From: an uncultured Gemmataceae bacterium
GTDB taxonomy: Bacteria > Planctomycetota > Planctomycetia > Gemmatales > Gemmataceae
NCBI GenBank assembly: GCA_963750165.1
Contig: CAVVPN010000004.1
Coordinates: forward strand, 1,184,001-1,248,000
DNA: 64,000 bases
Direction: 5' to 3'
Shown here: positions 2,234-15,911 of the stretch, piece by piece
Layout of the letters: each line of letters starts with the position of its first letter
Numbering within the stretch: position 1 is the stretch's first letter
Notes under the pieces: generated by a model
Told to the model about the DNA's origin: nothing
Seen by the model: the letters and a program-made list of their open reading frames with translations, nothing else
The model's database searches: none
Position numbers and translations under genes: made by a program

Positions 2234-2389
2234 GCTGCCTCCACAGGACGACGCCGTGCGTTCCGGGCTACTCGCTCATGACGACGGGTACCGCCGGGGC
2301 GCCTTCCGGCGCGCCCGAACGACCCAGCTCCCACGAAAATGTATTTCTGGGACTGTGTCCACCGAGGGGACCGTCGTGGGTGGTCCTGC

Positions 2390-3636
2390 TCAGGCCGCCG
2401 GTTCCGCCACGGTCACCTCATAGCCCATTCTCTGCAGCCGCCGCACCAGCCTCTCCTTCAGCCGGTCCTTGTCTGCCGTCCGGTAATAGTCCGGCCCCTC
2501 TTCCTGGTACGGCCGGCGCTTGCTCAGTAGTGTGTAGGCCATCCGCAAGATCCGGTGCCCCACCGCCAGGCAGGCCCGCTTGTCCCCGCGGCGTGCCTTG
2601 ATCCGATGGTACGTCGCCCGCAGACTGCTCTCCTTGGTGTTCGCCGCTCCCCGCGCCGCCTCCACCAGCGCCTGCCGCAGCCAGCGGTTGCCCTTGCGCG
2701 TCTTGCCGCTCTTCTGCTTGCCAGCGCTCTCGTGGTTGCCTGGACACATCCCCGCCCACGACGCCAACTGACCCTCCGACTGGAACCGGCTCATGTCCAG
2801 CCCGATCTCCGCCACGATCACCTGCGCCGTCCGCTGGTTCACCCCGGGAATCTGGTCCAACAGCGCTAGCGCCTGCGCGAACGGGAGGCACACCTCGGCG
2901 ATCTTCGCATCCAAGCGGACGATGGCGTCGTCCAGGTCGCTCACCTTCTGTAATTGCTCCCGCAGCAACCAGCGCTGCGTCGCGCTCATCACCCCGCGCA
3001 GCGCTTCCTCCAATTCCGGGATCTTCGCACGCAGCTGGCCCCGCGCAGGTTGGCCAGTACGGCGGGGCTGTCCACGCCCTCGGCCAGGCTGCGTAACATG
3101 TCTCGGCCACTGGCTCCCAGTACGTCGCTGGCCACGCCGGCCAACTTGATGTTGCAGTTCTCCAGCAACTTCTGGATACGGTTGCTCTCGTCGGCGCGCT
3201 GGCGGATCACTTGCGTGCGGTAGCGCGTCAAGTCCCGCAGTTCCCGGATTTCCTTGGGGGGCACGAAACTACTGCGCAACAGGCCCACACGCAACAGGGT
3301 GGCGAGCCACTCGGCATCCTTGACATCGGTCTTGCGTCCGGGCACGTTCTTGACGTGCTGGGCGTTGACCAGGACGACCTCAATGCCGGCCTGCTCCAGG
3401 ATGTTGAACACCGGCTTCCAATACACGCCGGTGCTCTCGATGGCCACGTGCCGACAGTCCGCCTGCACCAACCACTGCGCCAACTCCTGCAAGGCGCTGG
3501 TCATGGTCCGAAAGACCCGGCGCTCGACGAGCGCATCGCCCGAGGCACCCGACTTCAAGAGGCAGGCGGTCAGGGTCTTCTTGTGGACATCAATGCCGCA
3601 GCAAATGGTCAGCACGACAGGGAGCAGCGCGTCCAT
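2390..3636 (-). CDS. IS110-family transposase/recombinase (frameshift near 3040)
   Basis: GIDVHK, ESTGVYW, KTDVKDA, IPGV, ESAGK..SG...KGNRWLR motifs across two frames. Confidence 0.9.
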
Positions 3637-3864
3637 CGGAGTTCTCCAGACGCCCAGGGAGCATGCAGACGCCGGCGGTGGTGGAGTCTCCCACACGGGC
3701 ATATGGGCGCTGCGCCCAAATCAGGGTGCCTCGCGGCGTCCGGGTCCAACTCTGCGTCGGGCACGATGCACCAGCTAAGTCACGACCACAGCACGTCCCC
3801 AGACGCCCTCTATCCTAGCTCGCCTCCTTTTCATCGATCAGGGGGAAATTGGTTTCATGGAGAA
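3637..3864 (-). ncRNA. Candidate IS110 bridge RNA region
   Basis: ~230-nt non-coding end upstream of the recombinase, with segments matching the target flank and the element circle junction. Confidence 0.6.
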
Positions 3865-3987
3865 CTCTGCGGCGGGCCACTCGACTTAATGTGTCCGAGT
3901 AGACTCATATGGCCCGTCCGCAGCAGCACCTGGTTCGGACGGTTACTTTTCGACTTGGCCCCGTTCGCGCTTGGCCCAACAGGGGCT

Positions 3988-5732: not shown

Positions 5733-5820
5733 CTCGAACCTCTGATTATAGTGCGCTCTGCGCAACGTAGCACGGCCAAGCGCAACGTAGCAAGGGCATG
5801 CGCAACGTAGCAAAGGGAAC
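5733..5820 (-). other. attI site, duplicated copy (3 direct repeats)
   Basis: Matches 14334 onward from the G|TTCG crossover; GCGCAACGTAGCA x3 at 20-bp period. Confidence 0.75.
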
Positions 5821-5966
5821 GCGTTTCCCATCGCCTTTTTCTTGTACCCTCCCTCCGCGGTTCGGACAAGGAAAAAAAATTCCGCAGCGGCGTTTTTTCC
5901 TGGCACCGCCTGGCACACGCCCGTACACTAACGATAATATGCATTCCTGGTTGGAGGAGATCAGCC

Positions 5967-6758
5967 ATGTCGCCGGAAACCGTACCCCAACCGCCTCGTC
6001 TGCTCGATCAACTTCGCCAGGCAGCGTTGACCCAGTTCGGCCGACCGGAACCCGGCGAGCGTTACGCGCGCTGGGCGACCCGATTTATCCTCTTCCACCA
6101 CAAGCGCCACCCCCGCGACCTCGGCGCCGACGAGGTGCAGCACTTCCTCGAACACGTTGGCAAAACCGAAGAGCGGCCGGTGGACGCCCTCTTCGCGGCG
6201 CGCGAAGCCCTGGCCTTCCTGTATCAACAGGTGCTGGGCATCCCCCTGGAGGAAGTTCGCCTGCCCGAACCGCCCCGCCTGCTGGAGCGGGTGCGGTTGG
6301 CCCTGCGCGTGCGGCACTACTCCCCGGCCACGGAAAATTGCTACGTCACCTGGGCGGAACGCTTCATCCGCTTCCACCACCTGCGCCACCCCCGCGACAT
6401 GGGGGCCGCGGAGGTCAACGCCTTCCTGACCCACCTGGCGGTCCAGGAGCGGGTCGCCGCCAGCACCCAGAACCAGGCCCTGAATGCCCTGGTCTTCCTG
6501 TTCCAGCAGGTGCTCGATCTGGACCTGGGCCGGTTAGAGGCGGTGCGGGCGCGGCGGCCGAAGCGCCTGCCGGTGGTCCTGGCCCCCGAAGAAGTCCGGC
6601 GCGTGCTGGAAGCCGTCACGGGAGGTTCCGGGGTGCTGCGACTCATGGCCAGCCTGCTGTACGGCGCCGGGTTGCGCCGGGCCGAGTGTTGTGGCCTGCG
6701 CGTGCAGGACGTGGACCTGGATAAGAAAAGGGGTCGGGAGTCGATATTACGAATCTGA
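5967..6758 (+). pseudogene. intI: Truncated duplicate of integron integrase (intI'), homology ends at 6720
   Basis: Same sequence as 14586-15339; cut by a REP hairpin; lacks the catalytic K, HxxR, H and Y. Confidence 0.9.
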
Positions 6759-9866: not shown

Positions 9867-9964
9867 GGCTAACGACAAGGCTCTGCGGCGTTGGGGGCCA
9901 GGGTGGGCGTCAAAGCACGCAAGGCGTCACGGCCCCCAACGTCCGCAGCAGCCGCTTGTTCGGG
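9867..9964 (-). other. attC site
   Basis: GGCTAAC...CTGCGGCGTTGGGGGCC...GGCCCCCAACGTCCGCAG...GTTCGGG. Confidence 0.9.
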
Positions 9965-14331: not shown

Positions 14332-14440
14332 GCCGAACCTCTGATTATAGTGCGCTCTGCGCAACGTAGCACGGCCAAGCGCAACGTAGCAAGGGCATGC
14401 GCAACGTAGCACGGCCATGCGCAACGTAGCAAAGGGAACG
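14332..14440 (-). other. attI site (4 direct repeats) with adjacent TATAAT
   Basis: Minus strand ...TATAATCAGAGG|TTCGGC; GCGCAACGTAGCA x4 at 20-bp period; lies between intI and the first cassette. Confidence 0.8.
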
Positions 14441-14585
14441 CGTTTCCCATCGCCTTTTTCTTGTACCCTCCCTCCGCGGTTCGGACAAGGAAAAAAAATT
14501 CCGCAGCGGCGTTTTTTCCTGGCACCGCCTGGCACACGCCCGTACACTAACGATAATATGCATTCCTGGTTGGAGGAGATCAGCC

Positions 14586-15911
14586 ATGTCGCCGGAAACC
14601 GTACCCCAACCGCCTCGTCTGCTCGATCAACTTCGCCAGGCAGCGTTGACCCAGTTCGGCCGACCGGAACCCGGCGAGCGTTACGCGCGCTGGGCGACCC
14701 GATTTATCCTCTTCCACCACAAGCGCCACCCCCGCGACCTCGGCGCCGACGAGGTGCAGCACTTCCTCGAACACGTTGGCAAAACCGAAGAGCGGCCGGT
14801 GGACGCCCTCTTCGCGGCGCGCGAAGCCCTGGCCTTCCTGTATCAACAGGTGCTGGGCATCCCCCTGGAGGAAGTTCGCCTGCCCGAACCGCCCCGCCTG
14901 CTGGAGCGGGTGCGGTTGGCCCTGCGCGTGCGGCACTACTCCCCGGCCACGGAAAATTGCTACGTCACCTGGGCGGAACGCTTCATCCGCTTCCACCACC
15001 TGCGCCACCCCCGCGACATGGGGGCCGCGGAGGTCAACGCCTTCCTGACCCACCTGGCGGTCCAGGAGCGGGTCGCCGCCAGCACCCAGAACCAGGCCCT
15101 GAATGCCCTGGTCTTCCTGTTCCAGCAGGTGCTCGATCTGGACCTGGGCCGGTTAGAGGCGGTGCGGGCGCGGCGGCCGAAGCGCCTGCCGGTGGTCCTG
15201 GCCCCCGAAGAAGTCCGGCGCGTGCTGGAAGCCGTCACGGGAGGTTCCGGGGTGCTGCGACTCATGGCCAGCCTGCTGTACGGCGCCGGGTTGCGCCGGG
15301 CCGAGTGTTGTGGCCTGCGCGTGCAGGACGTGGACCTGGCCCGCAAGCAAATCATGGTCCGCCACGGCAAGGGGGGCAAGGATCGGATCGTCATGTTGCC
15401 GAAATCCCTGGTGCCGGAGCTGGAAAAGCAGCTGGGGTCGCGGCGGGCGCTGCACGACCGCGACCTGGCCCGCGGCGTGGCCCGGGTGGCCCTGCCCACG
15501 GCCTTCGGCCGGAAATTCCCGAGGGCGGCCCAGGAGTTCGGCTGGCAATTCCTGTTCGCCTCGCGCCAACTATCCACCGACCCCAGGACGGGGGACACGG
15601 GCCGCCATCACCTCCACGAAGGGGTGCTGGCGCGGGCCATGACCCAGGCCCGGCGGCGGGCCGGCGTGAACCGCCAGGTGGGCTGCCACACCCTGCGGCA
15701 CAGCTTCGCCACCCACCTCGTCGAGCGCGGCGTCGATCTGCGCACCATTCAGGTCCTGCTGGGCCACGAGAGCGTGGAAACCACCATGATCTACACGCAC
15801 GTCGCCCGCCAGGGCCCGCCCGGCGTCACCAGCCCGCTCGACCTGCTCCACGACCTCACCGACGCCGACGTCCGGGCCGCCTGCGACGCCAACGGGCGAC
15901 TGACCCCCTGA
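14586..15911 (+). CDS. intI: Integron integrase with duplicated N-terminal SAM-like domain
   Basis: GLR, GKGGKDR, HTLRHSFATHL, LLGH, YTH catalytic motifs; IntI-specific patch LPTAFGRKFPRAAQEFGWQFLF; divergent from the cassettes. Confidence 0.97.
   Translation: MSPETVPQPPRLLDQLRQAALTQFGRPEPGERYARWATRFILFHHKRHPRDLGADEVQHFLEHVGKTEERPVDALFAAREALAFLYQQVLGIPLEEVRLPEPPRLLERVRLALRVRHYSPATENCYVTWAERFIRFHHLRHPRDMGAAEVNAFLTHLAVQERVAASTQNQALNALVFLFQQVLDLDLGRLEAVRARRPKRLPVVLAPEEVRRVLEAVTGGSGVLRLMASLLYGAGLRRAECCGLRVQDVDLARKQIMVRHGKGGKDRIVMLPKSLVPELEKQLGSRRALHDRDLARGVARVALPTAFGRKFPRAAQEFGWQFLFASRQLSTDPRTGDTGRHHLHEGVLARAMTQARRRAGVNRQVGCHTLRHSFATHLVERGVDLRTIQVLLGHESVETTMIYTHVARQGPPGVTSPLDLLHDLTDADVRAACDANGRLTP

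Follow-up and report, generated by a model that had tools for sequence, protein, structure and literature searches.

The window analysed here is a 64,000-nt stretch of DNA (G000:C4:1184001-1248000) from a 9.6-Mb assembly with 66% GC, and it contains an integron. An integron integrase gene on the plus strand (14586-15911; TIGR02249, 465 bits against a cutoff of 265) heads the array, and the array comprises 42 attC-like rows in 60 kb. The sites carry R'' and R' boxes and form imperfect hairpins, as expected of integron attCs. The cassettes and the insertion sequence described below are on the minus strand, both pointing away from the integrase. A 961-nt, 99.5% identical duplicate (5760-6720 and 14379-15339), containing the 5' part of the integrase gene, lies within the cassette array. 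The cassette protein encoded at 927-1622 resembles SMI1/KNR4 only weakly, with a score under the cutoff, and positions 24-503 encode a C-terminal fragment that resembles another transposase by eye and has no Pfam match.

An IS110-family insertion sequence occupies 2330-3864 on the minus strand, 1535 bp between two 2-nt cores, and interrupts an attC site. The left part of the split attC (3865-3938, minus strand) runs from the R'' box (3938-3933) through most of L', includes the core at 3866-3865, and has sister sites in the array. The right part (2314-2329, minus strand) consists of the core at 2329-2328, a 7-nt right flank (2327-2321) and the R' box with G/TT at 2320/2319. The two flanks, rejoined computationally, form a full attC hairpin (-24.4 kcal/mol). 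Three full copies (the other two 1 nt longer) are present in the genome, with flanks that diverge outside the target, and each of the three splits a different attC, always at one and the same base of the L' box, where 8 nt separate the core from the G/TT crossover. A sequence-only reading of the locus had proposed that the element (2314-3939) splits an attC at a CTC core, and had raised the question whether other copies sit in attCs as well. The split attC and the shared position of the copies (3/3) stand, but the core is 2 nt (CT on the plus strand, at 2328-2329 and 3865-3866), the third base being common to target and donor in just 22 of 73 homologues, and the element interval is consequently corrected to 2330-3864. 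Among 93 homologues the core is AG in 80, AA in 8 and AC in 5, three classes that were imposed by the search. The left boundary is confirmed by five further multi-copy sets, in which divergence sets in 4-10 nt outward of the predicted left core. As in other IS110 elements, the target is specific and a short core is shared without target duplication. The non-coding ends measure 228 nt upstream versus about 60 nt downstream (homologue medians 226 nt at the left and 30 nt at the right).

Further occurrences of the element and its relatives were recorded. The third copy (G000:C3:2408182, L002) lies on a different contig, where it occupies an attC within a run of cassettes; that contig has no integrase match. 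The same genome carries a second element of this branch (G000:C3:527330-528550; L004, L029), with 53% protein identity and no attC noted in its flanks. In 10 of the 93 homologues (L013, L039, L042, L060, L069, L104, L113, L143, L144 and L153) the left flank is a right-end-like motif; tandem copies or half-match insertions into donor-like sites are candidate readings. Four contig sets that were searched yielded fragments of the element only, with neither a circle junction nor a further insertion site among them, an outcome that weighs neither for nor against expression.

The transposase gene (2390-3636, minus strand) encodes a DEDD RuvC domain and a Tnp domain with a catalytic serine, as expected of IS110 (PF01548 and PF02371; NF033542, 285 bits against a cutoff of 140); the catalytic residues are D16, E67, D104, D107 and S304 in the intact copies. 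The closest folds to the AlphaFold model (pLDDT 89) are the IS621 and ISCro4 recombinases, with 8wt6, 8wt9 and 9t56 as the best Foldseek hits. In the window copy a 1-nt deletion near 3045-3047 splits the transposase into 215 aa and 207 aa; the other two copies encode an intact protein of 415 aa. The deletion may be real or may be an assembly error. A soil contig of run X1, identical across 2836-3107, has the base that is deleted in the window copy. The window copy, with its ends and RNA region kept and no intact transposase, could be mobilised in trans by the two intact copies. Six substitutions private to the window copy, five of them silent, fall within 36 nt (2771-2806), a clustering suggestive of gene conversion by a diverged relative. 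Positions 2390-2510 (residues about 375-415) encode a C-terminal extension of this branch past the Pfam domains, with a predicted helix at residues 390-403; the extension is a candidate binder of the left-end hairpin or the repeats described below.

Covariation was examined in a sample of homologues. The RNA profile matched 153 of 158 distinct homologous upstream regions; 110 loci that carried the inner repeat motif and scored 4/5 or better for the hairpin were kept (96 after near-duplicate removal), and 43 were dropped (motif absent, sequence cut short, or lower score). The ends were placed from DNA motifs alone, giving 93 left ends, 73 of them with right end and flank. Since loci were selected by the inverted-repeat and hairpin motifs, the frequencies of these motifs are inflated. 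The homologues are related, and kinship was addressed by close-pair swap and held-out tests only. The held-out set comprised 10 loci (8 from 110 plasmid records, one genome and one viral contig), two of which were apparently anchored at the wrong hairpin. Overall, the guides covaried at z 8-27, with support from close-pair swaps. Homologues with 70% and 74% identity are labelled Gemmataceae and Isosphaera, respectively, which makes a planctomycete the probable host. At E<=1e-100, 7493 of 8000 scored candidates are homologous, the shared layout being established for part of them only. The RNA profile matched 2 of 21 viral loci with 29-45% identity, and the layout is supported down to about 45% identity.

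The upstream non-coding end is predicted to encode a bridge RNA with its core at 3667-3786 (minus strand), composed of a target loop (3786-3744) and a donor loop (3741-3667). The consensus structure, drawn from 53 of the 96 loci, has two internal loops, both with a closing stem at the base and a hairpin at the tip. Compensatory change was detected in 20 of 22 tested pairs, 93.6% of cells pair, and 0 of 500 shuffles reached the score, in a test that was favoured by the structure having been derived from the same alignment. Slid controls of the RNA alignment gave 33-50% pairing. The structure is visible only in the alignment: single-sequence folds of the non-coding end were no better than shuffles (z -1.05, -0.34, 0.88 and -0.75), and Rfam gave no match within the 64-kb window. 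A long G-U-rich helix of 3810-3790 with 3668-3650 could enclose both loops, and flanking complementarity of this kind is also seen in some homologues. IS110 elements are expected to have a two-loop RNA with guides that covary with the target and the element ends. Such an RNA is predicted here, and the bridge RNA candidate that had been proposed in the upstream non-coding end is upheld by its covarying structure. From sequence comparison, we are close to certain that this is an IS110-family element with a bridge RNA programmed for attC.

In the target loop, 3762-3750 matches the left flank 3877-3865 at 12/13, a level reached in 0.0004 of 5000 shuffles of the 228-nt non-coding end, and had been read as the left-target guide. 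The match covaries, but only 5 nt and the core act as a guide. This second target guide (3750-3756, minus strand) repeats, in the same sense, the core and the 5 nt of the left flank that precede it, and its 3756-3752 part tracks the left flank (4.49/5 versus a null of 1.41, n = 93; swaps 32:0 in 40 close pairs). The GCCC part of the 12/13 match is an RNA stem without covariation (z 1.0), and positions -6 and -7 do not covary either (z 0.7). Adjacent to the guide, a handshake dinucleotide (3748-3749, minus strand) matches the left end at its first two positions (1.91/2 versus 0.94, z 18.2; swap 11:0); the role of the handshake guide is described in PMC11208158. The first target guide (3773-3781, minus strand) is complementary to the core and right flank with 7 Watson-Crick and 2 wobble pairs, and forms 8/9 Watson-Crick pairs at each of the sites of the other two copies. 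Sequence complementary to the right flank is in excess solely on the 5' side of the left-flank guide (4.00 versus 3.31, z 8.1; swap 15:4), with z 0.9 on the 3' side and z -1.3 at 3720-3727. The first guide is the looser one, with a mean of 3.8/7 in the 54 of 73 homologues in which it ends in the core. Because the right-flank guide is 5' of the left-flank guide, the order is reversed and IS1111-like, a conclusion in which we place high confidence from the covariation. The IS621-like guide order expected earlier had to be abandoned, and with it 3720-3727 as the best right-target candidate; the left-target guide is not ahead of the right-target guide in gene orientation as in the IS621 type, and the actual right-target guide is at 3781-3773. 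Read on the plus strand, the target loop is the IS621 template with a CT core (9-nt guide, hairpin, then 5-nt guide, core and handshake), i.e., it reads DNA opposite to the orientation of the transposase gene.

The predicted 14-nt target corresponds to the spacer and L' box of an attC. Among the 928 genomic CT+CTGCG sites, the three empty sites that pair best with the first target guide, among those listed, are all attCs (two with 6/7 pairs, one with 5 pairs and 2 wobbles). Array attCs with the L' motif are occupied in 2 of 9 cases and other attCs in 0 of 33. The empty attCs at G000:C4:1153234, 1154314 and 1158992 match the guides as well as the occupied sites do and are the predicted next insertion sites. 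The attC at 9867, to which attention had been drawn, does contain CTCTGCG, but it is matched by the other target guide at 4/7 only and is empty. Among the 93 homologues with DNA context, only the window element passed as an attC insertion, plus one attC-like flank; about 70 proteins with 70-86% identity lie outside this count. The 70-75% homologues are not in attCs by the same test, and neither is an added close element, L195. From the sampled flanks we concluded that the clade as a whole does not target attC and, since these homologues are outside attCs, that the attC targeting seen here is a recent guide reprogramming, selective for one attC subtype. Next to the partial 89% homologue L185 lies a hairpin formed by a different attC-type arm (z -4.45), although no R'' box can be recognised there; the target guide of L185 is altered and matches its own flank.

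The donor loop also contains two guides. At 3694-3688 the RNA equals the right end plus core at 7/7, a level reached in 0.032 of 5000 shuffles. The corresponding second donor-loop guide (guide B; 3688-3695, minus strand) has the same sense as the right end and core, and its 3695-3690 part tracks the right end (5.52/6 versus 2.84, n = 73; swap 15:0), so the identity with element end and core noted in the sequence-only reading is confirmed by covariation. The donor-loop handshake is weak (0.71 versus 0.53, z 3.2). The complement of left-end nt 1-6 is absent from five RNA windows, the ribosome-binding site (RBS) region included (z -2.1 to 1.9). An unbiased column scan gave instead a same-sense diagonal between 3726-3719 and a site within the left end. 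This first donor-loop guide (guide A; 3719-3726, minus strand) has the same sense as an internal left-end site (3836-3843, minus strand; 21-28 nt inside the left end), with 7/8 matches and a wobble at the eighth. Among 96 loci guide A matched the inner site at 6.30/8 versus 4.10 (z 18.8; swap 22:2, p 1.8e-5), with one bulge allowed if the spacer was at least 10; in the 48 loci with a spacer of 9, without a bulge, the values were 6.17 versus 3.89, and in the 10 held-out loci 5.9 versus 4.7 (p 1e-4). The canonical partner, the left-end complement, gave 1.77 versus 1.77, and at left-end nt 3-6 58 positions changed alone and 2 concordantly. The two donor guides are thus not found to read opposite strands of the end junction, as they do in the IS621 type. 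The guide A match is imperfect: 8/8 was reached in 15 of 96 loci, just 5/8 in the viral locus L228 (40% identity), and of the 14 joint changes seen in the 16 equally spaced close pairs, 9 did not produce a match in both members. A wobble bias is found only at position 7 (16 versus 2), and none at positions 1-6 (8 versus 10). No RNA partner complementary to guide A was found in 33 windows (left end and RNA) or in 10 right-end tests; the best complementary partner reached z 4.0 with weak swap support, versus 11.4 for the same-sense site. Guide A probably does pair with the inner site, judging from these comparisons.

An 11-nt complement of the circle junction overlaps the RBS (3638-3648, minus strand) and had been taken for a donor guide. 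The string is indeed an exact 11/11 reverse complement of the predicted junction (0.0002 of 5000 shuffles), but it does not covary (z -1.6; swap 11:14), is 9/9 in only 1 of 93 loci (the window element itself) and 6/9 in the 89% homologue, and lies outside the donor-loop stem. We consider it lineage-specific and not a guide. In a computed read-through transcript the Shine-Dalgarno bases pair with the left end (P 1.0), and the complement may mute translation of read-through transcripts from the cassette promoter. In IS10 and IS50, translation is muted in read-through transcripts.

The inner site sits between a left-end hairpin and an inner repeat that is complementary to the right end. The hairpin (3844-3857, minus strand; arms 3857-3853 and 3848-3844) starts 7 nt inside the core and has 4 of 5 pairs in the window element; across homologues, its start is separated from the core by 6-7 nt and its end from the inner repeat by 9-11 nt. 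At least 5/6 pairs are present in 84 of 105 ends, and 42 close pairs displayed 33 compensatory, 6 one-sided and 0 broken double changes in the arms. The inner inverted repeat (3828-3834, minus strand) is the partner of a right-end sub-terminal repeat (2334-2340, minus strand) 4 nt inside the core, and the two repeats change together in the held-out loci L236, L239 and L240. When junction strands were folded in isolation, the hairpin formed (P>0.5) in 54 and the outer stem in 51 of 73; the fold of the window element is weak (P 0.19 for the hairpin and 0.12 for the outer stem). Mismatches in the hairpin on the sense strand are G-T in 27 and A-C in 5 cases (6 versus 2 at interior pairs, 12 versus 1 at the conserved-T position), and this G-T excess points to the sense strand, or to RNA, rather than to the antisense strand as the one that folds. 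Loop motifs and energies were uninformative on the strand of the hairpin (GNA triloops 8 antisense versus 7 sense; energies equal, p 0.50), and the T..C loop bias is also seen in RNA hairpins.

These features suggest a model for the donor. Both donor guides, having the sense of the transposase strand, would pair with the antisense strand, which corresponds to the first-cut 'top' strand of IS621. Guides in an internal RNA loop are antiparallel, so the DNA segments they read must be antiparallel too, and one strand that supplies both needs a U-turn. The left-end hairpin would turn the strand back, and the inner and right-end repeats would close the other side. In the folded junction, a bubble would remain with 12-13 nt (4 + core + 6-7) on one side and 10-12 nt on the other, a size near that of the IS621 donor bubble (14 bp). 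On this model one folded strand serves as the donor, either as an ssDNA circle or as an extruded cruciform; one strand exchange at CT would join the donor strand to the attC bottom strand, and replication would complete the insertion (copy-out). That the donor strand folds back as a pseudo-duplex read by both guides we rate somewhat short of an even chance. The full explanation, an attC-programmed IS110 element with reversed target loop, internal-site guide A and folded-strand donor, appears to us evenly balanced. Extended to a large multi-phylum IS110 branch, it would describe an RNA-guided ssDNA integrase with a folded-strand donor and one strand exchange, without second-strand synthesis, here aimed at attC, which we put forward tentatively.

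The covariation of guide A with the inner site could also reflect regulation: guide A might be an operator guide that brings the RNP to the inner site by the -35 box and represses the element's own promoter, and the donor would be recognised by a half-match (guide B, handshake and core) together with protein contacts to the inverted repeats. RNA-guided self-repression is known for Cas9 with tracr-L. In 28 of 96 loci a TAnnnT follows the inner repeat at a distance of 16-18 nt (other 3-nt bins, 0-17), and loci with this -35-like spacing match guide A better (6.96 versus 6.03), although the spacing effect may be a clade effect. The remaining 68 loci, the window element among them, are without the spacing and yet match guide A at 6.0/8; no TAnnnT peak at -35 spacing was found in 73 junctions, and no promoter in a scan of the window. 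Half-match recombination has been reported for IS621. Autorepression would leave the compensated left-end hairpin unexplained; it is the main rival of the folded-strand donor, and we judge it unlikely.

Another possibility places the hairpin in RNA, as the 5' hairpin of a longer precursor, with the identity of guide A and inner site arising from RNA folding alternatives or homogenisation. The sense-strand bias of G-T over A-C and the lack of wobble bias at guide A positions 1-6 are consistent with it, as is the 5' hairpin with which the IS621 RNA starts (PMC11208160). It is nonetheless quite improbable, as no window has a shared complementary RNA partner (z 4.0 versus 11.4), guide A occupies the homologous position of a first donor guide, and the identity is confined to 7-8 nt with a bulge tolerated; the donor loop would, moreover, have no first guide. 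Least of all do we expect the layout of the sequence-only reading, in which the guides follow the order of IS621, 3727-3720 serving as right-target guide and the RBS match as right-donor guide. We regard it as having a minimal chance: the 11/11 complement of the junction does exist and is seldom reached by shuffles (0.0002), but neither place covaries (z -1.3 and -1.6; swap 11:14), and the RBS match, 9/9 in 1 of 93 only, is outside the donor-loop stem.

The IS1111-attC group has reportedly been treated by Tetu and Holmes in 2008 and by Post and Hall in 2009. In the published literature searched, attC targeting is named only for IS1111 members. The ISKpn4, ISPst6 and ISPa25 seekRNAs of that group have in common with our element RNA-guided insertion at a fixed attC position, and IS1111 elements share with it a top-strand match before the bottom-strand match and, less clearly, sub-terminal inverted repeats (PMC11187229). 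In that group, however, the RNA follows the gene and the transposases have 330-350 aa, whereas here the RNA is upstream and the transposases are of the 395-455 aa IS110 class (PMC11187229). The IS1111 repeats are 7-17 bp near both ends; here they are 6-11 contiguous pairs (a motif that was partly selected), and the left partner is about 30 nt inside, behind the hairpin.

With IS621 and ISCro4 (IS622) the element shares the DEDD and Tnp-serine enzyme and an upstream RNA (PMC11208160, PMC11208158 and PMC13626964), the order of target loop and donor loop and, once the DNA is flipped, the target-loop layout and CT core (PMC11208160); the long upstream non-coding end (228 nt here) is common to the IS621 type. 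Identity is about 23%, and the protein has 415 aa here versus about 320 aa. In contrast to those elements, the DNA is read opposite to the gene, guide A tracks an internal left-end site on the strand of guide B, and sub-terminal repeats of 6-11 nt with a left-end hairpin take the place of a STIR of 2-3 bp. The transposase motifs of ISSsu10 and ISArsp3 (ISfinder names; similar rows in PMC11208160 Supplementary Table 1) resemble those of the clade, by eye only.

Top-strand-only excision is reported for IS621 (10.64898/2026.08.31.748434) and CazIS110-1 (10.1101/2025.10.25.684509). As described there, top-strand copy-out, ssDNA circles and top-strand ssDNA integration are what a fold-back donor would need. 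The same preprints give a canonical donor loop that reads opposite strands; the word 'hairpin' occurs 0 times in the CazIS110 text, and for CazIS110-1 the use of duplex donor brought an advantage of about 20-fold at one junction (10.1101/2025.10.25.684509). An internal-site donor guide or fold-back donor was not found in the available portions of the literature (including 10.64898/2026.10.21.760802, 10.1101/2025.05.14.653916 and 10.64898/2026.09.15.751765), of which PMC11208160 Figure 6d, Extended Data 10c, Fig. S12 of the October 2026 preprint and the supplements could show the branch. What appears new, on the present covariation evidence, is guide A as an unusual donor guide that reads an internal left-end site on the strand of guide B. 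A published guide prediction rebuilds the donor as a duplex with 25 nt per end (10.64898/2026.10.21.760802), and if the folded-strand donor is true, duplex-donor pipelines can overlook one of the guides of this branch. The model, if true, would also suggest that insertion can be programmed with ssDNA as the donor. A donor guide that pairs only on a folded or bent strand allows a direct test with three mutable parts.

Recombination on folded single strands, resolved by replication, is carried out by the integron integrase on folded attC and by the IS200/IS605 ssDNA transposases. These are unrelated enzymes without a bridge RNA, and the likeness is an analogy only. If the model is true, an RNA-guided ssDNA integrase would here be aimed at attC, which is a folded-ssDNA recombination site too. 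By feature comparison, the element is in the IS110 family and outside the IS621-type and IS1111 groups as defined; attC targeting has arisen in an upstream-RNA IS110 lineage as well, by guide reprogramming selective for one attC subtype.
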